Positions 2,125-63,258 of a stretch of 64,000 nt of DNA are shown here, piece after piece (within the stretch, counting starts at the first letter, position 1; every line of letters begins with the position of its first letter). The translations under genes were made by a program, and so were the position numbers. The notes below the pieces were generated by a model. That model did not search any database and had not been told where the DNA came from. It saw only the letters and a program-made list of their open reading frames with translations. This DNA is from Acidobacteriota bacterium (lineage in GTDB: Bacteria; Acidobacteriota; Vicinamibacteria; Marinacidobacterales; Marinacidobacteraceae): contig JAJEAO010000114.1 in NCBI GenBank assembly GCA_022822745.1, positions 69,613-133,612 on the forward strand. Reading direction: 5' to 3'.

Positions 2125-2226
2125 CCGGCAGACACGCCGGGCGGGGCCGCTACCGCGAGAACCGGCCCGGCGTTCCGGCTGACGCGCCGGGCAGGAGCCC
2201 CGGCCGGAGCCGGGACTCCCGCCCGG
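2125..2226. repeat. REP-like intergenic repeat, copy A (motif M1 gccgggcggggccgctaccgcgagaaccggcccggcg at 2135..2171)
   Basis: Near-identical copies of M1 occur at 44065..44101, 54966..55002 and 55015..55052. The element lies just 3' of the ybbP-like gene end, and the outer 7-nt arms gccgggc/gcccggc are inverted complements. Confidence 0.6.
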
Positions 2227-2231
2227 CACAA

Positions 2232-4790
2232 TCAGTCGGCGAGGACGCGGAGGGGCTTGCGGCGAAGGACGTCGGCGGCCGCGACCGCGCCCACCGCGGC
2301 GGCGCCCACGGCGGGCAGCACGACGGCGAACACGGCGATCAACGGCTCGGCCGCGAAGGGGAGCTGCATCACCCACCGGACCACGATCCACACCGTCCCG
2401 GCGGCGCCGATCGCGGCGGCCGCGCCGGCGATGGCCCCGATCGCCCCGTGCTCCAGGAGGGTCACCGCGACGACGCGAACGCTCCCGGCGCCGAAGACCC
2501 GGAGCACGGCGGTCTCCCGCCGGCGGGCGCCGATGTGGACCGCGATGGATCCGGCGAGGATCAGAAGACCGCCGAGCAGCGCGATCAGACCCACGACCCG
2601 AATCGCGAGCGCCACCGTGTCCGCCACCTGCTGCATCGTGTTCAGCACATCGCGCAGATCCACGACGGAGACGTTCGGGAACTCGCCGACGACCGCTCCC
2701 TGGAAGCGGGCCCGCTCCACGATGTCGTCGGGGCCGCGCACGAAGCCCGCGTAGCTTTTCGGGAAGTCCCGGACCGAGTCGGGATGGAACAGGAACGTGA
2801 AGCCGCCGTTCCGGGCGTTCCGCCACTCCACGTCGCGGATCGAGGTCACTCGCGCGTCGAGCGTCTCGCCGAGGATCTCGAACCGGATCACGTCGCCCAG
2901 CGCGAGCCCGTGGTCGTCGGTGAGCCAGTCCTCCACCGAGACCTCGATTCCCTCGGCGGGGCGATCGCCCCAGAACTCGCCCGCGATCAGGGTCTCGTTG
3001 TCCTCCATCGTCGCCCGGGAGCTCACGGTGTACTCGCGCCCGAGCCCGGCGCGGCGCACCGCCCGGCGGTCGGGATACTCGAACGTCGCCCCGAAGACGC
3101 CCTGGATGCGGGTCTGGAGCACCGGGATCAGGTTGATGTCGGGCGCGCCGCTCGCCGCGGAGCGCTCGCGCACTTCGGCGAGCTGGTCCTCCTGGATATC
3201 GAGGAAGAACAGATCGGGCGCCTCGCTGTCCTCCTGGAAGGCGAACTCGCGCTGCAGATTGCGCTCGATGCCGACCGCCGCGGTCACGAGGAAGACGCCG
3301 ACGCCGAGCGCCACGAGCACGACGCGCACCTGCGTCGCGCCCCGGAGCACCGTCCTGACGGCGTGGCGCACCGCGAAACTCCGGGCCCCCATGAGCGGTC
3401 CGAGGCTGCGGAGGAGGATGCCGCCGAGCACCCACAGGAGAACCGCCACCGCGACGAACCCCCCGGTCACCGCCAGCGTGATCAGCGCCGATCCGGACTG
3501 CCAGCCGGCGAAGCCGAAGAAGGCGACCGCCGCCGTGGCCGCGACGGCGGTCTCGGTTCGTCGGGTGCGGGACGAGGCGTCCTCATCCAGCAGGTCGCCG
3601 CTGCGCAGGAGGCCCAGCGGCCGCACCCGCCGGAGCGGCAGCAGCGGGAAGAGCGCCGACAGCAGGGACACCACGAGGCCGGTGAGCGCCCCCTGAAACG
3701 CGGCGAGCGGCGTCAGGCCGGCGGTGAACCGGACGCCGAAGCTGTCCACCGGCGGGATGAACAGGTGGAGCGCCACGGCCCCCACCGCGATCCCGAACGC
3801 CGACGCCAGCGCGGCGAGGACGAGCACCTGGATCAGGGCGGTCCAGAGGATGACGCCCGACGGGACGCCCAGGCACCGCTCGATCGCCGCGGACCGGAGC
3901 CCCTGCCGGGCGAAGGCCCGGGCTGCGCTGAAGACCCCGATGCCACCGAGGACGAGGATGACGAACCCGGCGAGGCTCAGGTAGTCCTCGGCGCGCTGGA
4001 TCCGCCGCGCCAGCCGGGCGCCGGTCTGCCGGTAGGTGCGAACCCGCACCGGCTGCTCCTCGAGCGCGACGCGCAGCGCCGACGCCAGCTCGGCGGCCTG
4101 TTCGTCGTCCCCGACCGCGAACAGGACCTCCCGGCGCCCGCGGCCCGCCACATCCACCAGCCCGGTGGCGCGGAGATCCTCGAGCCCGACGAGAACGCGG
4201 GGGCCGCGGGAGAAGAAATCCACGCCCGCGCCCGGCTCCCGCAGCAACTCGCCCCGCACCTCGAATCCCGCGCCGCCGAGGATCAGCTCGTCGCCGACTT
4301 CGAGGCCGAGCCGGGCGGCGAGCTCGGGACGCACGATCGCGCCGCCTCCGGCGAGGAGCTCCGACGCGAAGTTCAGACCACCTGCGAGTTCCATCTCGCC
4401 GTAGAGGGGGAAGGCTCCGTCCACGCCCTTCAGCTCGACCATGGCGGCGCGAAGCGGGTCGGCGGCCGAACGGGCGAGCGTGGCGATCTGCGCCGCCCGC
4501 GCCACTCCGGCGAGCGGATGAACGGAAGCGGCGTCGTCCATGGCCGCCTCGACCTCGGGCGTGAACCCCTCCGAGGTGGAGACGACGACATCGGCCGCCA
4601 TCAGGAAGCGGGACTCCGTCTCGAGCGCCTGGTGGAGGCTGTCGGCCGCGGAGCGCAGCACGACGATGGCCGCCACGCCGATTCCGACGGCGAGGAAGAA
4701 GACGGCGAGCCGCCGGATCGAGGATCGCAGCTCGCGCGCCGCCATCCGGAGCGCGAAGCCGACCGGCCGGAAGCCGGGCGGGGATGGCAT
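2232..4790 (-). CDS. ABC transporter permease with two FtsX-like domains (YbbP/LolE-MacB-type, 852 aa)
   Basis: Long hydrophobic ORF with FtsX/MacB-type permease architecture. Its start codon overlaps the stop of the upstream ABC ATPase (TGATG coupling at 4788..4792). Confidence 0.8.
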   Translation of the reverse strand: MPSPPGFRPVGFALRMAARELRSSIRRLAVFFLAVGIGVAAIVVLRSAADSLHQALETESRFLMAADVVVSTSEGFTPEVEAAMDDAASVHPLAGVARAAQIATLARSAADPLRAAMVELKGVDGAFPLYGEMELAGGLNFASELLAGGGAIVRPELAARLGLEVGDELILGGAGFEVRGELLREPGAGVDFFSRGPRVLVGLEDLRATGLVDVAGRGRREVLFAVGDDEQAAELASALRVALEEQPVRVRTYRQTGARLARRIQRAEDYLSLAGFVILVLGGIGVFSAARAFARQGLRSAAIERCLGVPSGVILWTALIQVLVLAALASAFGIAVGAVALHLFIPPVDSFGVRFTAGLTPLAAFQGALTGLVVSLLSALFPLLPLRRVRPLGLLRSGDLLDEDASSRTRRTETAVAATAAVAFFGFAGWQSGSALITLAVTGGFVAVAVLLWVLGGILLRSLGPLMGARSFAVRHAVRTVLRGATQVRVVLVALGVGVFLVTAAVGIERNLQREFAFQEDSEAPDLFFLDIQEDQLAEVRERSAASGAPDINLIPVLQTRIQGVFGATFEYPDRRAVRRAGLGREYTVSSRATMEDNETLIAGEFWGDRPAEGIEVSVEDWLTDDHGLALGDVIRFEILGETLDARVTSIRDVEWRNARNGGFTFLFHPDSVRDFPKSYAGFVRGPDDIVERARFQGAVVGEFPNVSVVDLRDVLNTMQQVADTVALAIRVVGLIALLGGLLILAGSIAVHIGARRRETAVLRVFGAGSVRVVAVTLLEHGAIGAIAGAAAAIGAAGTVWIVVRWVMQLPFAAEPLIAVFAVVLPAVGAAAVGAVAAADVLRRKPLRVLAD

Positions 4791-22802: not shown

Positions 22803-23930
22803 ATGAAGTTCGAACCGTTCGTGATGGAGCGCTGCCTGTGCCGGTGGGAGAACACCGTGGACTGGAACATCTCCGAGAGTGGGGTCCATCCGATGACGCT
22901 CGCCGAGCTGGCGGGGGATGTGGACCTCGGTGACACGCTGCTCGGCTACACCCAGAGCAACGGGACGATCCCCCTCCGGGAGCGGATCGCGGCGCTCTAC
23001 CCCGGCTCGACCGTGGACCAGATCCTGGTGACGACCGGGACGGCCGAGGCCAACTTCCTCTCGGCGCTGACGACCCTGTCACCCGGCGACGAGGTCGTGG
23101 CGATGGTCCCGAACTACATGCAGCTCATCGGCGCCTGCCGTTCGCTGGGGGCGCGGGTCATCCCGTTCCCCCTGGTGGAAGCCGACGGCTGGCGGCCGGA
23201 TCTGGACGCCCTCGAGGCGGCGGTGAGCCCCCGGACCCGCATGATCGCGATCTGCAACCCGAACAACCCGAGCGGCGCGGTCCTCACCGAGGACGAAATG
23301 AACCGCATCGTGGAAGTCGCCGAGCGGTCCGGGGCATGGCTCCTCTCCGACGAGGTGTATCGCGGGGCCGAGGTCTCCGGCGAGGAGTGCCCCACCTTCT
23401 GGGGACGCACCTCGAAGATCCTGCTGAACGCCGGGCTGTCGAAGGCGTTCGGGTTGCCCGGACTCCGCGTCGGCTGGACGGTGACCACGGAGGCGAAAGC
23501 GACGGAGCTCTGGGGGCACCGGGACTACAGCAGCCTGGCGCTCAGCGCGATGTCCGACCGGCTCGCGCAGATCGCGCTGGACAAGCGTCCGCAGATCCTG
23601 GAGCGCACCCGGAGCATCATCCGACGGCAGCTCCCGATCGTGGAGCGCTGGATCGCGTCGCACGCAGGCCATCCGGTGCGGCTCCGCTGGACCCGGCCGC
23701 TCGCGGGCGCGATCGCGGCGGTGCGCTATGACCATCCGATCCGGTCCGAGGATCTCATCGAGCGCCTGCGGATCGAGCGGAGTCTGCTGGTCGTGCCCGC
23801 GCAGCACTTCGAGATGGACGGCTTCCTGCGGATCGGCTTCGGGGCGGAGCCGCACGTGCTGGAGACGGCTCTCTCGATCATCAGCGAGACGCTGGCCGAG
23901 GTGGCGCAGGAGACGGCCGTCGCGGCGTAG
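22803..23930 (+). CDS. pyridoxal-phosphate-dependent aminotransferase, class I/II
   Basis: PLP-lysine block LNAGLSKAFGLPGLRVGW plus the N-terminal aminotransferase fold; 375 aa. Confidence 0.8.
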   Translation: MKFEPFVMERCLCRWENTVDWNISESGVHPMTLAELAGDVDLGDTLLGYTQSNGTIPLRERIAALYPGSTVDQILVTTGTAEANFLSALTTLSPGDEVVAMVPNYMQLIGACRSLGARVIPFPLVEADGWRPDLDALEAAVSPRTRMIAICNPNNPSGAVLTEDEMNRIVEVAERSGAWLLSDEVYRGAEVSGEECPTFWGRTSKILLNAGLSKAFGLPGLRVGWTVTTEAKATELWGHRDYSSLALSAMSDRLAQIALDKRPQILERTRSIIRRQLPIVERWIASHAGHPVRLRWTRPLAGAIAAVRYDHPIRSEDLIERLRIERSLLVVPAQHFEMDGFLRIGFGAEPHVLETALSIISETLAEVAQETAVAA

Positions 23931-23940
23931 CCTGTGGAGC

Positions 23941-23958
23941 GCCGGACTCGAGTCCGGC
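23941..23958 (+). terminator. GC-rich perfect hairpin gccggac-tcga-gtccggc, 11 nt after the aminotransferase stop (no U-tract)
   Basis: Seen directly in the sequence; convergent gene arrangement with gltA. Confidence 0.3.
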
Positions 23959-23989
23959 ACGGGAAGACCTGCAGCGCCGGGGGTTGCGG

Positions 23990-24245
23990 AATTGCCGCAC
24001 CCCTACCGGGAGAACCGGTGGAGGGCGGCGCTTCATGGAGAGCGGCGTTCCATGGAGAAGCGGCGTTCCGTGGGCGCACCGGAGACGCGACGGCTGGAGT
24101 GGGACGCGGTGCCGCTCTGGAGAGCGGCGCTCCATAGCAGAGCGGCGCTCCATACACGCCGGTTGGATGGGGCGCGGTGCCGCTCTGGAGAGCGGCGCTC
24201 CATAGCGGAGCGGCGCTACACAGGAAGAGCGGCGCTACACAGGAG
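23990..24245. repeat. REP-like repeat array, copy B: two copies of motif M2 (gcggtgccgctctggagagcggcgctccata at 24106..24136 and 24174..24204) plus about 5 degenerate 16-19-nt half-units (gagcggcg[c/t]t[c/a]ca...)
   Basis: Tandem and interspersed sub-repeats were read directly. M2 also occurs at 54890..54920 and 61977..62007. Confidence 0.65.
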
Positions 24246-24247
24246 AG

Positions 24248-26947: not shown

Positions 26948-27022
26948 TGGTGCGCGGTACAGGGTTCGAACCTGTGACTCCCTGCGTGTAAGGCAGGTGC
27001 TCTACCGCTGAGCTAACCGCGC
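26948..27022 (-). tRNA. tRNA-Val (anticodon TAC), CCA encoded
   Basis: Manual fold: acceptor GCGCGGT/ACCGCGC, D-arm GCTC-AGCGGTA-GAGC, anticodon arm CCTGC-CTTACAC-GCAGG, T-arm ACAGG-TTCGAAC-CCTGT, then ACCA. Confidence 0.9.
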
Positions 27023-35904: not shown

Positions 35905-37157
35905 CCGGGACCGGGCCTCTCGAGCGGTTCCTCGAGACGCGGGACCGGACCCTGCGGCTGGTGGCGCCGCTGGCGGCGGAGGACTTCGTCGCAGCCGGCG
36001 GCGGCGACGCGAGTCCGGTCAAGTGGCATCTCGGGCACACGACCTGGTTCGTGGAGCGCTACTTCCTCGAGACCGGCGGGTTTCGCTGGCGGCGTCCCGC
36101 CCCCGAGTACGACGACCTGTTCGATCCCGGGCGCCGGGCCTTCCACCGGAATCGCGCCCGCTGGACCCGGCCGACCGTCGCCGAAGTGTTCGCCTACCGA
36201 CGCGCCGTGGAGGAAGCGGTCGGGAACGCCGCCGGCGCCGGCCTCGCGCCCGGACCGGAAGCGGCGCTCGATCTCGCCACGCGCCACGAGGCGCTCCACC
36301 AGGAGCTGATCCTCGCAGAGCTGAAGCACCTCCTGTGGCAGAACCCCCTGCGCCCCGCCTACCGCGAGCCGTGGGAGCGCCGGCGGCCGAAGACGAACCC
36401 GGCGCCGCTGCGGTTCATCCCGTTCCCCGGCGGCGAGGTCGGCATCGGCCACGACGGGCCGGGGTTCTCCTTCGCGAACGAGAGGCCGCGGCGCCGCCGG
36501 CTCCTCGCGCCCTTCCAGCTCGCCAACCGGCTGGCGACGAACGGCGAGTTCCTCGAGTTCATCGCGGAGGGCGGCTACCGGACGCGGACGCTCTGGCCGG
36601 CCGACGGCTGGGAAGCCCGCGAAGCCCGCGGATGGGAGGCGCCGCTCTACTGGGAGCGGGAGGGCGACGACTGGACGGAATTCACTCTCGAAGGGCGCCG
36701 GCCCCTCGATCCCGCCGCGCCGGTCGGGCACGCGAGCTGGTTCGAGGCGCAGGCCTTCGCCCGCTGGCGGGGTTGCCGGCTGCCGCGCGAGACGGAGTGG
36801 GAGAGCGCCGCGGCGCGGGCGGACGTCACCGAAGCCAACGTGCTGGAGACCGGCCGTCTCGCGCCGCTCCCGGCGCCGGGGGATCGGGCGGCGCCCGGAA
36901 GGAGGTCTCCCGCCCAGCTCTTCGGGGATCTGTGGGAATGGACCGGAAGCGCCCACCTCCCCTACCCCGGCTACCGGCCGGAGGCGCGGCTTCCGGGCGA
37001 TCCGACGACGCGCTTCCTCACCACGGGGCCGGTGGTTCGAGGCGGCTCCTGCCTGACCTCCGCGCTGCTGGTCCGGGCGACGACCCGCCACCACATCCCC
37101 GCCGGCGACCGGCGCCACGCCACCGGGATCCGTCTCGCCCGCGATCCGCGGGTCTGA
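35901..37157 (+). CDS. EgtB-like sulfoxide synthase family protein (DinB_2 N-domain + FGE-sulfatase C-domain)
   Basis: DinB-like HLGHTTWF and H-x3-H-x-E (RHEALHQELI) iron-ligand pattern, then the FGE-type C-terminus (...GDLWEWT...RGGSCLTS...ATGIRLARD). ATG overlaps the Fic stop (ATGA). Confidence 0.65.
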   Translation: MTGTGPLERFLETRDRTLRLVAPLAAEDFVAAGGGDASPVKWHLGHTTWFVERYFLETGGFRWRRPAPEYDDLFDPGRRAFHRNRARWTRPTVAEVFAYRRAVEEAVGNAAGAGLAPGPEAALDLATRHEALHQELILAELKHLLWQNPLRPAYREPWERRRPKTNPAPLRFIPFPGGEVGIGHDGPGFSFANERPRRRRLLAPFQLANRLATNGEFLEFIAEGGYRTRTLWPADGWEAREARGWEAPLYWEREGDDWTEFTLEGRRPLDPAAPVGHASWFEAQAFARWRGCRLPRETEWESAAARADVTEANVLETGRLAPLPAPGDRAAPGRRSPAQLFGDLWEWTGSAHLPYPGYRPEARLPGDPTTRFLTTGPVVRGGSCLTSALLVRATTRHHIPAGDRRHATGIRLARDPRV

Positions 37158-37186: not shown

Positions 37187-37263
37187 CTGGTCGGGACGGC
37201 CGGATTTGAACCGACGACCACTTGCACCCCAAGCAAGTGCGCTACCAGACTGCGCCACGTCCC
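37187..37263 (-). tRNA. tRNA-Pro (anticodon GGG), CCA encoded
   Basis: Manual fold: acceptor CGGGACG/CGTCCCG, D-arm GCGC-AGTCTGGTA-GCGC, anticodon arm CTTGC-TTGGGGT-GCAAG, T-arm GTCGG-TTCAAAT-CCGGC, then ACCA. Confidence 0.9.
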
Positions 37264-37322
37264 GACGGGCGTCGAAGAGAGGGCGGGATTCTACGCCGCC
37301 GCGGGAATCCGATGCGCCCGGG

Positions 37323-41774: not shown

Positions 41775-44011
41775 GCGATCCGCCGCTCGTCGAGGTGGCG
41801 GTGGCGCGCCCGGCGCCGCGGACCTTCACCTACCGGACGCCGCCGGAGATGGTGGCGCCGGGGGAGACGACGCTGCCCCCGGGAGCGCGGGTGGAGGCGC
41901 CGCTCGGCCGATCCAGAGTGCGGGGCGTCGTCCTCGGGCCGGGGACTTTTTCCGGCGATGCCGGCGCGCTGAAGCCGCTTCTTTCACGACCGGAGGATCC
42001 GCTCCCCGCGCTGCCGGCGGATCTGCTGTCGCTCGGTCGCTGGGTGGCCGCCGAGACGGTCTGCTCCCTCGGGCTCGCGCTCGACGCCATGGCGCCGCCC
42101 GCAGGCTCCGCCTCCGCCCGGAAGCTGCTCTGCGCCCGGATCACCGCCGAAGGGATCGCCCGGCTCGCCGAGCCGGACGCGACCCCGGCGGCGGCGCGGC
42201 TGTCCGGGGATGACCGGCGGATCCTGACCCTGCTCGCGCTCTCGGAGGGCGCGGTGCCGCTGGTCCGCATCCGCGGGGAGCTGGAGCTTCCGCGGGGCCG
42301 CAGCTTCTCCCGACTGGCGCGCGAGAGCTTCCTCGACATCCGGCGGGAGTCCGCCGGGCTCGCGCCGCCGCCGGCGCCGAAGCAACGATCCGCGCCACCC
42401 GAGCTGAACCGGGAGCAGCGGACGGCCGCGGACGCGCTCCGGGCCGCCCTCGCGTCGCGGGAGTTCGGCGGGTTCCTGCTCCACGGCGTGACCGGGAGCG
42501 GCAAGACCGAGGTCTATCTGGACGCGGTGGCGGCGGCGCTGGATCAGGGCCGGAGCGCCCTGCTGCTCGTCCCCGAGATCGCGCTGACCCTCGAGATGGA
42601 GCGGCTGGTGCGGTCCCGATTCGGAACGCGGGTCGCGGTGTTCCACAGCGGCCTGACGGCGAAGCAGCGACGGGAGGCATTCTGGCGGGTCCGGAAGGGC
42701 GAGGCGCGGGTGGCTCTCGGGGCGCGCTCGGCGGTCTTCGCTCCGGTGCGTCAGCTCGGCCTCGTCGTGCTGGACGAGGAACACGACGCCGCCTACGGGC
42801 AGGACGAGGCGCCGCGCTACCACGCCCGCCGCGCGGCCTGGTTCCGGGCGCGCGCGGCCGGGGCAGTCCTGGTCCTCGGATCGGCGACGCCATCGCTCGA
42901 AGCGACGCGCGCGGCGCAGACCGGCGCGCTGCGCCGGCTCCGGCTGACCCGAAGGGTCGGGGGACGGCCGCTGGCCGCGGTGGAGCTCGTGGACATGCGG
43001 CCGGTCCTGCGCGAGCGGCGCGGACCCCGGCCGGCGGTGCTCTCTCCTCTCCTCGCCGCCGGGCTTCGGGAGGCGATCGCCGCCGGGCGCCAGGCGCTCG
43101 TCCTGCTGAACCGGAGGGGCTACCGGGCGCGGATCGTCTGCCTGCGGTGCGGGGAAGTCGCCTCCTGCGAGCGGTGCGCGCTGGCGCTCAGCCTCCACCG
43201 GCGCGGGCGTCTCGCGGTGTGCCACGGCTGCGGGCGCGGGACGCCGCCCCCCGGGTTCTGCCCCGGATGCGGGGGCGATGTGCTCCGGGCGGAAGGCGTC
43301 GGAACCGAGCGGCTCCAGGAAGCGGTGGCGGAGATTCTTCCCGACGCGAGGGTGGAGCGATTCGACCGCGACACGACCCGCGCCGCCGGTGAGCGGGCGC
43401 GGCTGCTCCGCGCCTTTCGCCGCGGCGAGATCGAGGTTCTGGTCGGAACCCAGATGATCGCCAAGGGCCTCGACTTCCCGGGGGTGGCGCTCGTCGGGGT
43501 CGTCGCCGCCGACGCCGGGCTCGGTTTTCCCGACTTCCGGGCGGCCGAACGGACGTTCCAGCTCCTGACCCAGGTCGCCGGTCGCGCCGGGAGGGGCGAG
43601 GTCGGCGGGCGGTCGGTGGTCCAGACGCTGAATCCGGAGCACTACGCGGTCCGAGCCGCCAGCGACCAGGACTACGCGGCGTTCGCGCAGACCGAGATGG
43701 AGCTGCGGGAACGGCTGGGCTACCCGCCGTTCGCGCGTCTCACCTTCGTGACCACCACAGCGCCGACGCCGCCGCTGGCGGAGCGCGAAGGGCGCGAGCT
43801 GGCGGAGTTCCTTCTCGAACGGCTCGCGCCGCGCGGAGTCGAGGTTCTCGGGCCCGCTCCCGCGCCGCCGGGCCCGGGGAAGGCGATCCACCGGCGCCAG
43901 ATCCTCCTCCGGGCGCCGCCGGCTCGGCAGCGGATCGTGCGGCGGTGGCTCCACCGGCTGCTCGGGGATCCCGTGCTCGCCCGCCGCACCGCGATCCACG
44001 CCGACCCGTAG
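41771..44011 (+). CDS. priA: primosomal protein N' (replication restart helicase PriA)
   Basis: Walker A LHGVTGSGKTEVY, Cys-rich zinc-binding insert (CLRCGEVASCERC...CHGCG...CPGCG), and helicase C-terminal motifs. GTG start overlaps the UDG stop. Confidence 0.85.
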   Translation: MSDPPLVEVAVARPAPRTFTYRTPPEMVAPGETTLPPGARVEAPLGRSRVRGVVLGPGTFSGDAGALKPLLSRPEDPLPALPADLLSLGRWVAAETVCSLGLALDAMAPPAGSASARKLLCARITAEGIARLAEPDATPAAARLSGDDRRILTLLALSEGAVPLVRIRGELELPRGRSFSRLARESFLDIRRESAGLAPPPAPKQRSAPPELNREQRTAADALRAALASREFGGFLLHGVTGSGKTEVYLDAVAAALDQGRSALLLVPEIALTLEMERLVRSRFGTRVAVFHSGLTAKQRREAFWRVRKGEARVALGARSAVFAPVRQLGLVVLDEEHDAAYGQDEAPRYHARRAAWFRARAAGAVLVLGSATPSLEATRAAQTGALRRLRLTRRVGGRPLAAVELVDMRPVLRERRGPRPAVLSPLLAAGLREAIAAGRQALVLLNRRGYRARIVCLRCGEVASCERCALALSLHRRGRLAVCHGCGRGTPPPGFCPGCGGDVLRAEGVGTERLQEAVAEILPDARVERFDRDTTRAAGERARLLRAFRRGEIEVLVGTQMIAKGLDFPGVALVGVVAADAGLGFPDFRAAERTFQLLTQVAGRAGRGEVGGRSVVQTLNPEHYAVRAASDQDYAAFAQTEMELRERLGYPPFARLTFVTTTAPTPPLAEREGRELAEFLLERLAPRGVEVLGPAPAPPGPGKAIHRRQILLRAPPARQRIVRRWLHRLLGDPVLARRTAIHADP

Positions 44012-44029: not shown

Positions 44030-44172
44030 CCGCTCCGGCAATGTCCCGGCGCCGGCGCTCCCGTGCCGGGCGGGGCCGCTACCGCGAGAACCGGCCCGGC
44101 GCGCCGGCAATGTCCCGGCGCCGGCGTTCCCGTGCCGGGCAGGAGCCCGGCGTTCCGGCGGGCACTCCATAC
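44030..44172. repeat. REP-like intergenic repeat, copy C: direct repeat ggcaatgtcccggcgccggcg[c/t]tcccgtgccgggc (44037..44071 and 44104..44138) flanking motif M1 (44065..44101), ending cactccata
   Basis: Read directly; it shares M1 with copies A and D and the 'tccata' end with M2 copies. Confidence 0.6.
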
Positions 44173-48200: not shown

Positions 48201-48565
48201 ACGGACAGCACCACGGACTCGGATCGCACTGGGAGGTGTGGATGGCGGCTTCCGCGATGACGCCGGAGGAAGCGCTCGATCTCGCCGCGCGGCAGGGGGC
48301 GGCGTTCCTCGGGCTCGAGCACGAGCTGGGCACGCTCGAGACCGGGAAGCTCGCGGACCTGGTCGTCCTCGACCGGAACCCGCTGGAGGACATCCGCGCC
48401 ACGACCGCCATTCGCCTGGTGGCCAAGGACGGCCGGATCCACGACGGGGACACCCTCGACGAACTGTGGCCGGAGTCGAAGCCCTACGGGGGCTATCCGT
48501 GGCTGGACGAGGACATGCTCCGCGACGACGTGCGCCCCATCCGGCCTTCGAGAGAACGAGAATGA
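45218..48565 (+). CDS. secreted TolB-like WD40/beta-propeller repeats fused to C-terminal amidohydrolase domain (1115 aa)
   Basis: Signal peptide MRRSSLLAATASLFGALFGALLGAGLSLAQE, repeated ...SPDG...A(F/Y)...-type propeller blades, and a C-terminal metal-dependent hydrolase region (LIPGLIDMHAHHH...). GGAGG lies 10 nt upstream. Confidence 0.75.
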   Translation: MRRSSLLAATASLFGALFGALLGAGLSLAQEGGRTDDSGWDTTLARGNAYDLVFETSEGTWMSLDVSPDGSTLVFDLLGHIYRLPVEGGRAESLTQDSGAAVNYHPRFSPDGAAIAFVSDRGGQSNLWLMDGDGGNPRPVHEDPDSRVTSPAWMPDGRGIVARRSTVAPGARSSGLFLFHPEGGSGVELVGSGFSRADWPAPSDHGTLYFQFAPSSERDLLRGSMQIRELDLATGEVLDVTEGQAQQQYQGSSGSAIAPEPSPDGRWLAFARRIPGGTISWKGHRYGPRNALFLRDLRTGAERLVADPIEMDAAEGMKTERSLPGYAWAPDSRSLFLTRGGRIVRVDVETGAATGIPFTAEVRRRVSEQARAEVDIAGETFRARMIRWPTVAPDGSAAVFHAAGRLYRMDLPDGRPERLIPGNEPTYELSPAWSPDGAWIAYATWDDTTGHVWKVPAEGGEPVRLTTTSSEYIHPAWTPDGAAVVVARGTGAPARGRSWSQNLRYDLVRVPAAGEAGGDLQIVTRTLRPFNAGRPLMPRRQIVAPSFGPEGRLFFPEQTSRERNGRREDVTKLVSVRMDGSDRRVHLTFPWADEAAPSPDGRHVAFSEGDNVYVTALPWPGTGAEPPHITRRRASLPVTTITTDGGLFPRWTPDGLLHLGSGPRISTWDPGSGETVHHEVRLDLPRDRPRAGGAALLVGGRIVTLGPMGTIERGNLRIENGRITCVGECPTSSGDHELDVSGKTLIPGLIDMHAHHHRDHTGILPRRNWEAAVYLAYGITTTLDNSQWSQNVFSAAELVEAGEMVGPRMFSTGDPMYNGDGSRQNEITSFEDARDNIERLTSWGATAIKSYMQPRRDQRQWIADISRERKLMLTGEGGSLVYNIGLILDGQTAWEHPLTYVPLYEDAAKFFGRTKTVYSITFVVGGPSAWNEEFFWQETANWRDPKQQRWLPWRMLVPHTRTRPLREETDYSFPLLAQGLADIVAEGGSGAIGSHGQHHGLGSHWEVWMAASAMTPEEALDLAARQGAAFLGLEHELGTLETGKLADLVVLDRNPLEDIRATTAIRLVAKDGRIHDGDTLDELWPESKPYGGYPWLDEDMLRDDVRPIRPSRERE

Positions 48566-49158
48566 GGTCTGGAGCCATGCTGAGACAACTACACATCCGA
48601 GACCTGCTGTGCGGGAACGTCGGCGACACTTTCGTCTATGACTGGGGGCCGGTAGAGAAGCACTCGGCGGAGCGCGGTCTGAACCTTGAGGGCTTTCTGG
48701 TGATGCCGATTGCCGACCGGCTCCACCGCAAGAAGCTTCGGTCCCCCGTCCTCTTCTGGTACGCCCCCCTTATGCCCGCCAGCTTTGTCGTCACAGTTAC
48801 CTGCCGTCGTGCTGTCGATTTCATGGATCCTCTCCACGGCCTGCCGGGATACCGGGCCTTCGGCAGCGATCTGGTGCCACCAATCGCCCGTCCGTTCCTC
48901 TACTGGACCGGTAGGGACGTGATTCGAACGCATCCCAGACTGGCTGGAGGAAATGAGTCTCCGTATCTCGTGGACGACTTCGCAAACGGGTTCGGGCTCA
49001 CGTCTGGAGAAGTAAGTAAGGAGTGGTACGAATCGGTTCGTCAGAACCCTGCGGATCACTTCGAGTACGCCGCGGTTCCACAGGTGCCCGACGAGTTCCG
49101 TGTCTGGAAGAACCGACGGGTAAAACTCTTCCACGCGGTCTGCATCATCCCGTCCTGA
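48562..49158 (+). CDS. hypothetical protein (198 aa) in a lower-GC (about 57-58%) segment
   Basis: ATG overlaps the stop of the upstream gene (ATGA). Codon usage is visibly AT-richer than its neighbours; no recognisable domain. Confidence 0.5.
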   Translation: MRSGAMLRQLHIRDLLCGNVGDTFVYDWGPVEKHSAERGLNLEGFLVMPIADRLHRKKLRSPVLFWYAPLMPASFVVTVTCRRAVDFMDPLHGLPGYRAFGSDLVPPIARPFLYWTGRDVIRTHPRLAGGNESPYLVDDFANGFGLTSGEVSKEWYESVRQNPADHFEYAAVPQVPDEFRVWKNRRVKLFHAVCIIPS

Positions 49159-49267
49159 CTTGGCCGGATGGTTGGCACCGCAACGTTCCCACACCGTCCG
49201 TGTGCGCACTTGGCGCTGGGCCGACTCCACGAGTCACCTGGCGTAGGGGAGTGAGACGACCCCGGCC

Positions 49268-49381
49268 ATGAGTGGATTCCCAGTAGCGGCTTGGGTACTG
49301 TTGATTGTGGCGGTGGTGCCGGGGATGATGCTCGCGCTCTGGAACGCCGCCCGCGGCCGGCTCGCCTCCCGTCGTGGCTGA
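49268..49381 (+). CDS. small membrane peptide (37 aa) upstream of and overlapping the solute symporter start
   Basis: MSGFPVAAWVLLIVAVVPGMMLALWNAARGRLASRRG is a single TM helix. The arrangement is analogous to small membrane proteins found upstream of sodium:solute symporter genes (yhdT-panF in E. coli; ActP-like SSF transporters commonly have an upstream DUF485 gene). Confidence 0.35.
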   Translation: MSGFPVAAWVLLIVAVVPGMMLALWNAARGRLASRRG

Positions 49382-54316: not shown

Positions 54317-54796
54317 ATGACGCCGGCGGACTGGGATGTGGTCCGGCAGATCTACATCGAGGGCATCGGAACCGGACACGCGACCTTCGAGACGGAGCCC
54401 CCGGCGTGGGACGACTGGGACATCGCTCGCAGCCCGGAGTGCCGGCTGGTGGCGGAGACGGGAGATCGCGTCGTCGGTTTCGCCGCGCTCACCCGCGTCT
54501 CCCCGCGCCCGGTCTATCGGGGCGTCCAGGACGCGATGCTCTACGTGGCGGCCCACGCCCGCGGCGCGGGCGTGGGATCGGAACTGCTCGCCCGGCTCGT
54601 CGAGGCGTCGGAGGCCGCGGGGATCTGGACGCTCGAGGCCCACATCTTCCCGGAGAACGCAGCCTCGGTGCGCACCTTCGCGAACGCCGGTTTCCGGGTC
54701 GTCGGGGTCCAGGAACGGGTGGGGCGGTTCCGGGACGGGCGGTGGCGCGATGTGCTCGTCATGGAGCGCCGCAGTCAGGTCGTCGGCGTGGACTGA
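54317..54796 (+). CDS. GNAT-family N-acetyltransferase (phosphinothricin-acetyltransferase-like)
   Basis: About 159 aa with acetyl-CoA-binding motif region ...RGAGVGSELLARLVE...; start chosen at internal Met MTPADWDVV of ORF 54212..54796. Confidence 0.7.
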   Translation: MTPADWDVVRQIYIEGIGTGHATFETEPPAWDDWDIARSPECRLVAETGDRVVGFAALTRVSPRPVYRGVQDAMLYVAAHARGAGVGSELLARLVEASEAAGIWTLEAHIFPENAASVRTFANAGFRVVGVQERVGRFRDGRWRDVLVMERRSQVVGVD

Positions 54797-54885
54797 CTCC
54801 ACCGCGCCGAGGCGCCCCGATTCTCCGGGCCCGTTCTCCCGGTAGGGGTTCTCCAGAGCGGCAAATTCCGACTACAGCCAGGTTC

Positions 54886-55080
54886 CATTGCGGTGCCGGT
54901 CTGGAGACCGGCGTTCCATACAGGCCCCTGCCGGGAGAACCGGCGGAGGCCGGCAGTCCATGCGTGCCGGGCAGGGCCGCTACCGCGAGAACCAGCCCGG
55001 CGCGCCGGCAATGTGCCGGGCGGGGCCGCTACCGCGAGAACCGGCGCCGGCGCGCCGGCAAGCAACATGGAGCGGCGCTC
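54886..55080. repeat. REP-like intergenic repeat, copy D: one M2 unit (54890..54920) followed by two tandem M1 units (54966..55002 and 55015..55052)
   Basis: Read directly; it lies between convergent GNAT and 3-hydroxyacyl-CoA dehydrogenase genes. Confidence 0.65.
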
Positions 55081-55108
55081 CGGGAGCGGCGGTCGTTACG
55101 GTCCCGCT

Positions 55109-56410
55109 TCACGGTCCGGCGTTCTCCGGCTCGTCGCGCCGGTCCGGAGGCGGGCGCTCCAGGGCGGCGGTCCAGAGCGGGCCGCCGCGCGACCGCGGGA
55201 AGCCGTAGCCGGCGACCCAGATCAGGTCCACGTGGGACGGGTGACGGGCGATCCCCTCCTCCACGATCCGGCGCCCCTCGCTGGCCAGCGCGCCGAGAGT
55301 CCGGTCGAGGATCTCGGCCTGGCCCACCGCGCGACGGGAGACGCCCCGGGCAGCAGACTCCGCCTCGACGAGGGCGGCGACCTCGGGGTCCGGATGGGCG
55401 GCGCGGGACGGCGCGTGGTAGCGGTAGAAGCCCGCGCCGGTCTTCTGCCCGAGGCGACCGAGCTCGACCAGCCGATCGGCGAGCGTCGCCGGCGGCTTCG
55501 GCTCGCCGCGCCGAACCGCCTCCTCCACCTGCCTCCGGCGGACGGCGTGGCCGATGTCGAGCCCGGCGAGGTCCGCCACCTCGTACGGGCCCATCCGGAA
55601 GCCGAACGCCCGCATCGCGTCGTCCACCCGCTCCGGCAGGGCGCCCTCGAGCAGGAGCTCTTCGGCGGCCGCGCGGTAGGCGTAGAGCATCCGATTCCCC
55701 ACGAAGCCGTCGCACACCCCCACCGGGACCGGCGTCTTGCCGAGCCGGGCGCCGAGAGCCAGGGTGGCGGCGAGCGTTCGGAGCGCGGTCCGCGCGCCCA
55801 CGACGACCTCGAGGAGCGGCATCACGTGGGCCGGACTGAAGAAGTGGGCGCCGATGACGCTCTCCGGGCGGCTGGAGGCGGCGGCGATGCAGTCCACGTC
55901 GAGACTGGAGGTGTTCGTCGCCAGGACCGCGCTCGCCGGCGCCGCCGCTCCGAGAGACCGGAAGATCCGCTGCTTGAGCTCGAGGTCCTCGAACACCGCC
56001 TCGACCACGAAGTCGCGCTCGGCGGCCGCCTCGAGCGAGGGAACGCGCCGGACGCGGGCGCGGCGCGCCTCCGCCTCGGCCCGATCGAACCGGCCCCGAG
56101 CGACGGCCCGACCCAGACTGCCCGCGAGCGCCGATTCGCCGCCCTCCCACGCCGCGTCGGAGGGCTCGAACACGGCGACCGGGATGCCCGCCGCGGCGAA
56201 CGCGAGCGAGATCCCGCGACCCATCGTCCCGAATCCGATGATCCCGACCGTCCTCGTCTCGGGAACCTCGACCCCTGCCGGAAGGCGGGCGGCGTCTTCG
56301 GCGGCGCGACGCAGATGCGCCTCGGCGGCCCGCGCCTGCTCTGCGGTCGGAGGAGCGAAGCGGGTCACGGGCGCGGATCCTACCGACGGACCGAACCCGT
56401 CAGGGGCCAC
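55109..56410 (-). CDS. 3-hydroxyacyl-CoA dehydrogenase (NAD-binding + C-terminal domains)
   Basis: Rossmann motif VGIIGFGTMGRGIS and ...SLDVDCIAAASSRPESVIGAHFFSPAHVMPLLEVV..., characteristic of HADH/FadB-C. True start may be the internal GTG near 56368. Confidence 0.75.
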   Translation of the reverse strand: MAPDGFGPSVGSAPVTRFAPPTAEQARAAEAHLRRAAEDAARLPAGVEVPETRTVGIIGFGTMGRGISLAFAAAGIPVAVFEPSDAAWEGGESALAGSLGRAVARGRFDRAEAEARRARVRRVPSLEAAAERDFVVEAVFEDLELKQRIFRSLGAAAPASAVLATNTSSLDVDCIAAASSRPESVIGAHFFSPAHVMPLLEVVVGARTALRTLAATLALGARLGKTPVPVGVCDGFVGNRMLYAYRAAAEELLLEGALPERVDDAMRAFGFRMGPYEVADLAGLDIGHAVRRRQVEEAVRRGEPKPPATLADRLVELGRLGQKTGAGFYRYHAPSRAAHPDPEVAALVEAESAARGVSRRAVGQAEILDRTLGALASEGRRIVEEGIARHPSHVDLIWVAGYGFPRSRGGPLWTAALERPPPDRRDEPENAGP

Positions 56411-57706: not shown

Positions 57707-58324
57707 CTACTCGAGCGATTCGAGGGCTTCGAGGAGCGGGGCGTAGTCCTCCACGATCTGGTAGTCGTAGTTCACGTAGCGGAGGACGCCCTCCCGATCC
57801 ACGACGAAGGTCGCGCGGGAGGCGTAGCGGGCTCCGTTGATCTCGATCGGCTCGACGCCGTAGGCGTCCACGACCTGGCTGTCCCGGTCGGAGAGGAGCA
57901 CCAGCGGAGGCAGTTCGCCATCGGCTGCCTGCGGGCGGCCGCCCTTGTCGGCGGAGAAGCTCTCCAGCCAGTTCCACTGCGAGAACGGGGAGTCCACACT
58001 GATGCCGAAGACCATCGCGCCTGCATCCAGAAACTTCTGGATGTCGTCCCGGTAGGACGAAAACTGGCGGGTTCAACCACCGGTCCAATCGGCCACGTAG
58101 AACGCGAGCACGATGTTCTTCTCGCCGATCACATCGTGGAGCGAGATCTGCGTCGCTCCGGGACGCTCGCCGGCGGTGGAAGCGAGGGGATTCGGGAAGG
58201 CGGGAGCGCGGTCCCCCACCTTCAGGGGACCGTCCTGGGCCGCCGCGGGAGCGGGAGAGCCGGCCGCCAGGACGACGACGCCGAGGAGCGGCGCGAGCCA
58301 GCGCAGCGGGGAGGGGCGCTTCAT
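57707..58324 (-). CDS. periplasmic peroxiredoxin (BCP/PrxQ-like, AhpC-TSA/Redoxin fold) with in-frame TGA (58073..58075) at the peroxidatic-Cys position; candidate selenoprotein (alternatively a nonsense-disrupted gene)
   Basis: ORFs 58073..58408 and 57707..58015 are in the same frame with only one stop between them. Joined translation reads ...NIVLAFYVADWTGG[TGA]TRQFSSYRDDIQKFLDAGAMVFGISVDSPFSQWNW..., i.e. the Prx T-x-x-C motif with TGA at C. Signal peptide MKRPSPLRWLAPLLGVVVLAAG. GGAGG lies 10 nt before ATG 58324. Confidence 0.6.
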
Positions 58325-58521
58325 GGGACAACCTCCGGGAGGAAACGGGATCCGGACCCTGGGCGGGTTCCGGTGACGAATGATGGCCGGTTTCGCCGGG
58401 GCGGGCAACCGGGACCGGGCGGACGGGAGAGGGACGCCGCGGGGGGAGCGCGGGCGGTGCTATTCTGATTCTTTGCCCGCTGGCGCGGCGGGCGACCCGC
58501 CTGAGAGAGGTTGATGCATCC

Positions 58522-61269: not shown

Positions 61270-61917
61270 ATGAGTTCCTACGACGATCAGGATCACTACG
61301 ACATCCAGTTCAGCACCCGGCAGCTCGCGCTGCTGTTCGGGCTGCTCGTGGTGATCGTCGGCGGCGTGTTCGTCGGCGGGATCGTGATCGGCCGGAACAT
61401 GTCCCACGAGGCGCGGGAGGTCATCGCCGCGCGGCGGTCGGGCGGACCGATCGTCCCGCCCCCTCCCGCGCCCTCTCCGGTGGACGCCGTCGAGGAACCC
61501 GCGACGTCGGCGCCGCCGGAGACCCGCGTCAACCCTCCGATCGTGGCCGCGCCCGAGCCGACCCCGACTCCGGCGCCGACCCGACCGAGCCCGAGGGCCG
61601 AGACTTCGGTTGCCGAAGCGGAACCCGCCTCGCCTCCGCCACCGGCGGCGACCCCGCCGGCTTCGACGCCGGCGCCAACCGCTCCGACCGCCTCCGAAGG
61701 CCAGTTCACGATCCAGGTCGCCGCTTTCCGCGACCGGGCCGCCGCCGAGAGTCTGCTCGCGCGCATCGGCGAGCTGGGACTCGAGGGCTACCTCGAGGGC
61801 ACTCCCGCCGGCATCTTCCGGGTCCGGGTCGGCCGCTTCGCGACGCGCGAGGAGGCCCGGCGAGTGGCTGCCCGGCTCGAAGCCGAGCAGCTCGCCGCGC
61901 TCGTCACGAGCCGCTGA
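61270..61917 (+). CDS. SPOR-domain protein (cell-division/peptidoglycan-binding), single N-terminal TM, Pro/Ala-rich linker
   Basis: C-terminal SPOR domain ...QFTIQVAAFRDRAAAESLLARIGELGLEGYLEGTPAGIFRVRVGRFATREEARRVAARLE... Confidence 0.75.
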   Translation: MSSYDDQDHYDIQFSTRQLALLFGLLVVIVGGVFVGGIVIGRNMSHEAREVIAARRSGGPIVPPPPAPSPVDAVEEPATSAPPETRVNPPIVAAPEPTPTPAPTRPSPRAETSVAEAEPASPPPPAATPPASTPAPTAPTASEGQFTIQVAAFRDRAAAESLLARIGELGLEGYLEGTPAGIFRVRVGRFATREEARRVAARLEAEQLAALVTSR

Positions 61918-61976
61918 GAACCGGCCCCGTCAACGCCTCGCCTCCGCCCGAAGCGGCAATCCGGTCCCGGGGAGTT

Positions 61977-62007
61977 GCGGCGCCGGTCTGGAGACCGGCG
62001 CTCCATA
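61977..62007. repeat. REP-like repeat, copy E (single M2 unit gcggcgccggtctggagaccggcgctccata)
   Basis: Perfect 9-nt inverted repeat cgccggtct-gg-agaccggcg; it lies between the SPOR gene and prfB. Confidence 0.6.
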
Positions 62008-62126
62008 CCACTCGCCCCCGCCAGGCCCGGCCATCCGATCCCGGGGAGCCCTCGGGCGTCCATCGGGGTTAGCATCCCGTGCGCAAACGGGGCGGGCGAG
62101 ACGGGCCAGTCAGGGAGAACGAGATC

Positions 62127-63258
62127 GTGAAGCACGAACTCCTGGAGCGATTCCAGGCGCTGACGCCCCGGATCGGGGTCGTCCGGGGGTTTCTTTGACC
62201 CGGACGGACTGGCGAAGGAGATCGCGGAACTCGACGACCGACTGACCGACGCCTCGGTCTGGTCCGCCTCCGGCGACGGCCAGAGGCTCTCGCGCCGCCG
62301 GGCCGCGCTGGCGGCGGAGCGCTCCCGCGGCGCCGACTTCGAGGAGGTTCTCGAGGAAGTCGAGACCCTGGTGGAATGGGCGCGCGAGGGTGAATCCGTG
62401 GAAGAGGATCTCGCCGAACATCTGAAGCGGCTGGAAGCGGCGCTGGCCGACCTGGAGCTTCGTCAGCTCTTCGCCGGAGAGCACGACACGGAGGACGCGA
62501 TCCTCACGATCAACCCGGGCGCCGGGGGGACCGACGCCCAGGACTGGGCGGGCATGCTGCTCTCCATGTACATCCGGTGGGCGCGCAGCCACGGCTTCGA
62601 CGTCCGGTTGCTCGACGAGCAGCCCGGGGACGAAGCCGGAATCAAGAGCGCGACGCTCGAGGTCCGTGGCGACCACGCCTACGGTCGGCTTCGGGTGGAG
62701 TCCGGCGTCCACCGCCTCGTGCGCATGTCGCCGTTCGACACCCAGCACCGAAGGCACACCTCCTTCGCTTCCGTCGCGGCGTTTCCCGACCTCGACGACC
62801 GGATCGAGATCGAGGTGGACGAGAACGACCTGCGGATCGACACCTTCCGGGCGAGCGGCAAGGGCGGACAGCATGTGAACGTGACCGACTCCGCGGTGCG
62901 CATCACCCATCTCCCGACGGGCCTGGTCGTGTCGTGCCAGAACGAGCGGTCGCAGCACCGCAACCGCGACAGCGCGATGAAGGTGCTGCGCGCGCGGCTC
63001 TACGACCGCGCGGTCCAGGAGGCCAAGGCCCGCGAGGAGGCGGCCAAGGAGGGCCTCGGGGAGAACACCTTCGGGAACCAGATGCGGTCCTACGTGTTCC
63101 AGCCCTACCGGATGGTCAAGGACCACCGAACGAACCACCAGGTCGGTGACGTGGACCGGGTCATGGGGGGCGACCTCGACGGCTTCATCGAGGCCGGGCT
63201 CGTCCTCTCGGGCGGGACCCGGCGGGGACCGGAGAGAGCGGCCGAGCCCGGAGCGTAG
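62127..63258 (+). CDS. prfB: peptide chain release factor 2 with programmed +1 ribosomal frameshift at CTT-TGA-C (62193..62199)
   Basis: GTG 62127 is followed by 23 codons ending ...GGG TTT CTT TGA C with an upstream SD-like GGGGG, the classical prfB autoregulatory site. The +1 frame continues into ORF 62371..63258, which carries SPF and GGQ motifs (...RASGKGGQHVNVTDSAVRITH...). Confidence 0.85.

Follow-up and report, generated by a model that had tools for sequence, protein, structure and literature searches.

In canonical REP elements, the foot of the hairpin carries a hallmark 5′ tetranucleotide, GT[AG]G (PMC6006769, PMC3733652), and the REPs of E. coli serve as barriers to 3′ exonucleases or as stops for transcription (PMC6006769). 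CGTC-tagged REPs have 8- to 9-bp stems starting with A-T pairs, loops of 4 to 5 nt, and a CCA tail (Di Nocera et al. 2013, PMC3733652). Untagged REP-like stem-loop families are found in Mycobacterium tuberculosis, Deinococcus radiodurans, Bordetella, Brucella, and cyanobacteria (PMC3733652).

We present here an untagged REP-like stem-loop family from a 64-kb stretch of Acidobacteriota DNA (the window), which is part of a 180-kb metagenome scaffold. It is a known kind of repeat in a new host lineage and not a new kind of system. The report provides a first description of, and a working search model for, a repeat family that is abundant in the under-studied, uncultured Vicinamibacteria-related Acidobacteriota, including sponge symbionts.

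Motifs, forms, and copies in the window

An earlier, sequence-only reading of the window listed copies of two motifs, M1 and M2. Perfect matches to the 37-nt M1 lie at 2136-2172 and 44065-44101, and a match with two mismatches lies at 54966-55002; the number expected by chance is 0 (100 dinucleotide-preserving shuffles). A fourth copy, at 55015-55052, is real; it was missed by a search allowing three mismatches because of a 1-nt insertion in its 3′ arm (GGCGCCGGCG versus GGCCCGGCG) and was recovered, at 70%, within repeat family D1. M2 has exact matches at 24106, 24174, 54890, and 61977, and the number expected from shuffles is once more 0. The listed positions are borne out by these matches, apart from the first M1 copy, which had been placed at 2135 and starts at 2136. 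A G-to-A change thought to be common to the M1 copies at 54966 and 55015 is confined to the former (positions 54973 and 54994), the latter having G/G; it would turn a G/G juxtaposition at the inner foot of the stem into A/A and creates no compensatory pair. Two further words are enriched in the window, ACCGSGAGAACYRG with 7 copies versus 0.26 expected and CCGGCAATGTSCCGGSG with 3 copies versus 0 expected.

M1 and M2 belong to one family, as its long and its short form, respectively, and their description as two motif types was a mis-segmentation. In the short form (M2), a 7-bp GC hairpin, GCCGNNC-UGGA-GNNCGGC, precedes a nonpalindromic tail, GYTCC; the long form (M1) shares both and has 20 additional nucleotides, GGCCGCTACCGCGAGAACCG, inserted in the loop. 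Deleting the middle 20 nt of the long form leaves GTGCCGGTCTGGAGACCGGCGTTCC, which is M2; without the insert, only hairpin and tail remain. About 40 copies in other genomes read GTGCCGGTCTGRA|GGCCGCTACCGCGAGAACC|GGCCGGCGNTCC, that is, the halves of M2 around the core of M1. A covariance model trained on short forms alone also recovers long forms, and the two forms are adjacent in loci L079, L045, and L060, in L079 (Vicinamibacteria) within the same arrays. At L079 3940-4400, a short form lies inside a 122-nt unit that is repeated three times and followed by one unit with a long form; the forms therefore interconvert within an array. The same locus, on chromosome OZ220713.1, has a second, unrelated tandem array (3590-3870) with a unit of about 60 nt, GCTACTGCTACATGTTCCTCCCGGAG..., between an inverted pair of hairpin elements.

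Family-wide, the short form reads GCCGNNC-NGRA-GNNCGGC plus GYTCC, with a UGGA or UGAA loop, and the conserved 3′ tail after the stem is GYTCC(A/C). Within the long-form insert (about 20 nt), the word ACCGSGAGAAC is conserved. On its 5′ side, the element is usually accompanied by an accessory GC hairpin, the sequence of which varies while the hairpin is kept, for example GCGCGGTGC-GGA-GCACCGCGC and GCGCGGCGC-GGA-GCGCCGCGC. A pseudoknot between loop and tail (UGGA with UCCA) was considered and rejected; copies with UGAA loops have G[GC]TCCC tails and not UUCA, so that there is no covariation, just two subfamilies.

The window contains about 13 copies at five spacers (loci A to E), each a mosaic of hairpin modules, accessory words, and half-sites. 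The covariance model finds six strong short forms (40 to 47 bits), and all strong matches are extragenic; weak matches at 36218, 36369, and 49336 were dismissed as coding or unrelated sequence. Locus A begins with a long form at 2133-2178 (+), which contains the exact M1 match and the GAGAAC module; GCCGGGC/GCCCGGC is its stem, GGCCGCTACCGCGAGAACC its loop insert, and GCGTTCC its tail. A variant read from the sequence at 2186-2227 (+) shares the outer stem, GCCGGGC...GCCCGGC, and has a 28-nt nested-hairpin loop of its own; 4 nt separate its end from the stop codon (TCA, 2232-2234, - strand) of a gene for a MacB/FtsX permease (Pfam).

Locus B starts with a short form on the minus strand at 23931-23967 (stem GCCGGAC/GTCCGGC, loop TCGA; 41.4 bits, E = 1e-7), the tail of which is 5 nt from the stop codon of an aminotransferase gene (ends at 23930, + strand). 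It continues at 24000-24070 (+) with a GAGAAC-module hairpin, GCCGC ACCCCTACCGGGAGAACCGGTGGAGG GCGGC plus GCTTCA (repeat family D19; fold z = -3.9), followed by half-sites of the form GAGCGGCGTTCCATGG. Two exact short forms, 24102-24138 and 24170-24206 (46.1 and 46.5 bits), then lie in a 68-nt tandem with half-sites (GAGCGGCGCTCCATA / ...CTACACAGG) that occupies 24102-24247 (+), and the array reaches the stop codon of the citrate synthase gene (24248, - strand). Locus C (44031-44161, +; exact M1, covariance model, repeat family D14) lies between priA (+, ends at 44011) and a PALP-family gene (+, from 44184). It consists, in order, of an accessory hairpin, CGCCGG CAATGTC CCGGCG, the M1 copy at 44065-44101, a second accessory hairpin, and a short form at 44125-44161 (+), GCCGGGC AGGA GCCCGGC (39.9 bits).

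Locus D lies between genes for a GNAT protein and 3-hydroxyacyl-CoA dehydrogenase (3HCDH). A reverse-complement long-form variant, GTTCTCCCGGTAGGGG TTCTCCAGAGCGGCA, occupies approximately 54820-54868 (-), as judged from the ACCGSGAGAACYRG match at 54830-54843 (- strand) and comparison with L140, and its tail side points toward the GNAT stop codon (54794-54796). It is followed on the plus strand by an exact short form at 54886-54922, GCCGGTC TGGA GACCGGC plus GTTCCATA (47 bits), and by a GAGAAC-module hairpin at 54925-54962, CTGCCGG GAGAACCGGCGGAGG CCGGCAG plus TCCATG (D19). The two long forms at 54966-55002 and 55015-55052, found by motif search and as members of D1, form a 49-nt tandem joined by a CCGGCAATGTG linker (54963-55056, +). 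The last segment, 55066-55165 (+), has the half-site palindrome GGAGCGGCGCTCC and then a degenerate copy at 55129-55165 (26.8 bits). Locus E is a lone, exact short form at 61973-62009 (+; 45.3 bits) between a SPOR-domain gene (+, ends at 61917) and prfB (+, GTG at 62127).

The flanking genes named in the sequence-only reading are those found here: MacB/FtsX permease, aminotransferase and citrate synthase, PriA, GNAT and 3-hydroxyacyl-CoA dehydrogenase, and SPOR. All copies that it listed are intergenic by gene and Pfam annotation. Its wider description, of GC-rich palindromic interspersed extragenic repeats in mosaic clusters, mainly at gene 3′ ends and convergent junctions as in REP/BIME, is supported. 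The apparent confinement of copies to the plus strand is an effect of incomplete detection, since minus-strand copies are present at 23931-23967 and about 54820-54868; these, the members at 44125-44161, 2186-2227, and 55129-55165, and the accessory modules were absent from its list.

Several neighboring features of the window were recorded. The gene for release factor 2, prfB (62127-63258, +), has a classical programmed +1 frameshift site, GGGGG TTT CTT TGA C (CTT, 62193-62195; TGA, 62196-62198), and its PCRF and RF-1 domains are in the downstream frame. An AhpC/TSA-type peroxiredoxin gene (57707-58408, -) has an in-frame TGA (58073-58075) at the expected peroxidatic Cys (..FYVADWTGG*TRQFSS..) and a small hairpin 3′ of that codon, and the split into two open reading frames recurs in relatives L140 and L141; its product is a candidate selenocysteine protein. 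A low-GC island at 48566-49370 (about 55% versus 71.5% for the window), possibly a recent acquisition, contains an orphan 198-aa open reading frame (48562-49158, +) with no Pfam match.

Thirty distinct short forms from the window, relatives, and metagenomes were used to examine pairing. In the named 9-bp helix 96.7% of cells pair, compared with 33 to 54% when the 3′ partner is slid. The inner two stem positions, which were left free in the search pattern, occur as GT/AC, CT/AG, GG/CC, and GA/TC and are always complementary. Double changes are seen at two pairs, a count that 78 of 500 shuffles also reach. The hairpin is under constraint, and the support from compensatory variants is modest, with small numbers. 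With a 7- to 9-bp stem, this degree of pairing, and four compensatory stem variants, the element has the stem-loop expected of a REP.

The predicted inner folds of the long-form insert differ among insert variants, and RNAalifold, run on an alignment anchored on the exact 19-mer, finds no compensatory pairs in it. A two-tier hairpin with a conserved apical loop, considered for the long form, gains no support from these predictions. The folding strand is not discriminated by G-U pairs in the stem, which occur on the strand of M1 and M2 (the M strand) alone in L127 and on the opposite strand alone in L123; G-U-type variation at two stem-flanking pairs weakly favors folding on the M strand over the mRNA strand. 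The GGA loops were also considered as possible CsrA-type sites on the M strand, which seems unlikely; half of the family has UGAA, and the orientation rule described below speaks against M-strand transcripts.

Distribution, orientation, and turnover

A scan of one genome per species with the M1 core GGCCGCTACCGCGAGAACC returned at least 95 loci, about half of which are chance coding matches (e.g., in Streptomyces and in a Thermoanaerobaculia protein). Among the matches listed, about 40 are true long-form copies, and the MAGs that carry them, at least 12 in number, bear the label Acidobacteria, Acidobacteriota, or Vicinamibacteria. Two of the long-form carriers are complete chromosomes, and at least 27 copies are present in 13 sampled 8-kb blocks of chromosome OZ220713.1. 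A metagenome scan with the pattern GTGCCGGTCTGRAG-N{1,31}-CGGCGYTCC yielded about 24 short forms in contigs of 51 to 69% GC with unrelated flanks, including one 51% GC contig with two copies 9 kb apart. Metagenome long forms with other inserts retain CCGSGAGAAC (L114 and L125). The motifs are thus not confined to the window but are carried by at least 12 species-level genomes and by metagenomes, and coding sequence is nearly free of them, save for 3′-terminal tails.

The conservation of the core is deep. The citrate synthase (gltA) of the window is 63 to 65% identical to Vicinamibacterales/Vicinamibacteria sequences and 80 to 93% identical to those of closer relatives, and its 3HCDH is 62% identical to the ortholog on OY821641.1 (3,796,715 nt), itself a long-form carrier; the 19-nt core and most of its flanks are thus identical across a deep divergence. 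Overall, a core of 19 to 25 nt is identical between genomes in which housekeeping proteins are about 62 to 65% identical.

The short form has no exact match in IMG/VR viral contigs. With Rfam 15, the only hits in the window at the gathering threshold are two tRNAs, and the element is matched by no family; in the multicopy loci L079 and L012, no hit with E ≤ 1 falls on the elements. The tRNAs, tRNA-Val(TAC) at 26948-27022 and tRNA-Pro(GGG) at 37188-37264 (-), are the sole Rfam and ARAGORN matches in the window. Literature searches with the hairpin and insert sequences on both strands gave a single hit, an unrelated Pseudomonas aeruginosa paper, and no paper tying Vicinamibacteria to palindromic intergenic repeats was found.

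Copies are oriented, with the tail toward the stop codon of the adjacent gene. The 81 distinct copies compared come from sequences with a GC content of 62% or more; with the element written in the M1/M2 sense, 33 have a converging stop codon within 80 nt beyond the tail and 26 have one within 18 nt (median distance, about 7). On the 5′ side, a gene end lies within 80 nt in 12 of the 81, none nearer than 43 nt (Fisher P = 4e-4). The asymmetry in distance exists partly because the accessory hairpin fills the 5′ side, so that the count of 33 versus 12 is the fairer measure; if the element is taken to include that hairpin, the difference in distance becomes smaller and the count stays. The overall orientation bias is only about 3:1.

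Between convergent genes, copies are arranged as inverted doublets with their tails outward, and arrays occur as well. Tail-out doublets are found at L098, L067, L106, L117, L140, and L142 and, once minus-strand copies are counted, at loci B and D of the window; in the relative with 93% gltA identity, each stop codon is faced by one copy. Loci C (priA and the PALP-family gene) and E (SPOR and prfB), with copies in sense orientation between codirectional genes, are exceptions. A replication-linked strand bias was rejected, the apparent all-plus pattern of the window having come from missed minus-strand copies. Plus and minus copies are interleaved along OZ220713.1; there is therefore no replichore pattern, and replication direction is not what organizes the copies.

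Copy number and arrangement change among close relatives, through rapid gain, loss, and rearrangement. In orthologous spacers of relatives (71 to 96% protein identity), copies differ in number or arrangement or are absent. Between gltA and the aminotransferase gene, the window has an array of at least 317 nt; the corresponding spacer is 133 nt long with two inverted copies in the 93% gltA relative and 58 nt long with no copies in an 83% relative. In an 80% gltA relative (L100 11412-12327), an RHH/PIN toxin-antitoxin pair lies between gltA and the aminotransferase gene, at the site of the window's array. Relatives at 96%, 84%, and 71% identity have family members in the GNAT/3HCDH spacer, and the number, form, and order of these differ each time.

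The repeats alter gene 3′ ends and break short-read assemblies, leaving gaps in scaffolds. The degenerate copy at 55129-55165 encodes the last 17 residues, LERPPPDRRDEPENAGP, of 3HCDH (gene at 55109-56410, - strand). This C terminus is nonconserved and common only to the 96% relative; the gene end was therefore remodelled by the repeat. In the ENA version of the scaffold, L096 11464-11564 (about window position 24114), a run of N and extra repeat units lie inside array B, and the 317-nt spacer of the window may therefore be a collapsed longer array. One Logan contig ends at the edge of the array and another inside locus D, and the ends of several MAG contigs lie no more than about 120 nt from a copy.

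Transcript ends and competing explanations

The gltA 3′ region folds at -157 kcal/mol (z = -6.5) on the mRNA strand, and locus D folds with z = -1.9. The hairpins have the position after stop codons of an intrinsic terminator and lack the U tract, T runs being absent in either orientation. A scan of window positions 44 to 64 kb for canonical hairpin-plus-U terminators found weak sites only (10 versus 5 expected), none of them convincing.

We consider it probable that the repeats are an untagged REP/BIME-like modular family that gives adjacent genes 3′-end hairpins, and we infer both its spread and its effect on transcripts. Hairpin DNA near gene 3′ ends would be multiplied by a copy-and-paste or recombinational process. 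On the mRNA strand (the reverse complement of M1 and M2), the upstream gene would gain one or more very stable 3′ hairpins, which could stop or pause transcription or block 3′ exonucleases. Since the hairpins are stable and canonical terminators are lacking, a role in termination, in pausing, or as an exonuclease barrier is plausible, and orientation and position likewise make a terminator or stabilizer function plausible. In genomes without canonical terminators, the repeats may mark transcript ends; if so, they would aid operon annotation in MAGs.

Other explanations were weighed against this one. That the repeats are a chance by-product of GC-rich, low-complexity DNA gains something from the 71.5% GC content of the window and from model matches below 20 bits scattered in coding DNA, but no dinucleotide-preserving shuffle yielded any match, the strong model matches are all extragenic, and the motifs recur across many genomes, including a 51% GC contig; the shuffles and this recurrence already refute chance, to which we give practically no credence. 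An alternative origin by mobility is as canonical REPs or REPINs mobilized by a single RAYT (TnpA_REP) gene that lies elsewhere in the genome, flanked by repeats (a REPtron). The tail-out inverted doublets do resemble REPINs, and the four doublets inspected have no target-site duplications, as fits HUH enzymes. The gene is usually single copy and so easily missed in the 1.08 Mb sampled. The long-form loop has GGTAGC on the mRNA strand, although this is the only place where GTAG occurs, inside the loop and on the strand opposite the element. At the foot of the hairpin, the alignments show neither the defining GT[AG]G nor CGTC; the foot is G[CT]G, with the GYTCC tail on the other side. In the 1.08 Mb (the window and 142 loci), tblastn with approximate RayT, IS200, and IS608 queries, a weak test, gave no significant match to a Y1 transposase, and none is found near copies in the Pfam annotation of the window proteins or among the called genes around copies in relatives. 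Mobilization by a RAYT is improbable. Still less probable is that the copies are MITEs, nonautonomous remnants of DDE-type insertion sequences with the hairpin and tail as terminal inverted repeat. At L106, a stretch of about 120 nt is enclosed, in the manner of terminal inverted repeats, by a pair of inverted copies (about 38 nt with the flank GAATGGTCC), and comparable tail-out pairs occur in L067, L098, and L117; most copies, though, are single or in direct tandem, the inspected pairs have no direct target duplications, and no inverted pair encloses a transposase-bearing full-length element, the pair in L079 enclosing only other repeats.

The depth of conservation bears on two further explanations, both of which are unlikely in our estimate. 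One is a host-encoded signal kept by selection, such as a factor-dependent terminator, a site of 3′-end processing or protection, or a protein-binding site. An identical core of 19 to 25 nt despite about 62 to 65% protein identity goes beyond typical REP conservation, ACCGSGAGAAC is conserved within otherwise variable inserts, tails lie within 18 nt of stop codons, and canonical terminators are lacking, all as such a signal would predict. It accords poorly with the differences in presence, copy number, and orientation at orthologous spacers of close relatives, with the existence of tandem arrays and half-sites, with copies that precede genes or lie in the sense direction (loci C and E), with the presence of the element in only about 5 of about 45 window spacers, and with an inner fold that is inconsistent across insert variants. 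The other, just as tentative, is that a dedicated protein reads the hairpin, the GYUCC tail, and, where present, ACCGSGAGAAC, either as a terminator or 3′-processing factor or as a non-RAYT hairpin-DNA enzyme that copies the element, and that the recognition signal belongs to a host system in Vicinamibacteria-like Acidobacteriota and some unclassified bacteria. A dedicated reader would explain how a noncoding 19- to 25-mer stays identical at about 62% core-protein identity, and this explanation is kept because the core is conserved to such unusual depth. Selfish REPs are not usually conserved to such depth; the conservation suggests a conserved partner protein and could mean that a host factor recognizes the element instead. 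If the copies are merely selfish hairpin repeats, the finding is an ordinary one.

Comparison with described repeat families

Like the REP, BIME, and REPIN elements of Proteobacteria (E. coli and Pseudomonas), the present repeats are short, GC-rich, imperfect palindromes that are extragenic, multicopy, and arranged in mosaics. They share with them the inverted doublets, the placement after genes, the occasional absorption into a gene's 3′ end, and the fast turnover. Inverted doublets occur with a recurrent linker, CCGGCAATGTSCCGG, as in REPINs and BIMEs; many clusters are direct tandems and not alternating repeats. Unlike Proteobacterial REPs, the family has no GT[AG]G foot tag and has a conserved GYTCC tail instead, no associated RAYT was found for it in 1.08 Mb (approximate queries), it exists in two length forms through a loop insert with its own conserved word, and its core is conserved over a far deeper divergence. 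The features of a MITE are missing, with no duplications at the four doublets and no transposase between inverted pairs.

The mycobacterial TRIT motif, reportedly described with the RNIE terminator predictor, is a conserved-sequence terminator hairpin without a U tract. TRIT, too, is a GC hairpin of conserved sequence that recurs at convergent junctions and the 3′ ends of genes, in a high-GC genome without canonical terminators; its sequence is unrelated, and the present family, unlike TRIT, has arrays, doublets, and insertion/deletion polymorphism as in mobile repeats.

The CGTC-tagged REPs also have no dedicated transposase, have a short unpaired tail after the stem, and occur mainly as inverted dimers. 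A further likeness is that the accessory hairpin of one Vicinamibacteria subfamily is preceded by GACGTG (CACGTC on the other strand). In contrast to those elements, the present ones have stems of G-C pairs throughout, and the foot of their conserved hairpin lacks the tag. With the untagged families (PMC3733652), the present one shares interspersed stem-loops that have neither GTAG/CGTC tags nor a known dedicated transposase, and it is set apart from them, by description, in its sequence, phylum, and long/short modularity. Its notable traits are the long/short dimorphism, the oriented tail, and the unusually deep sequence conservation.
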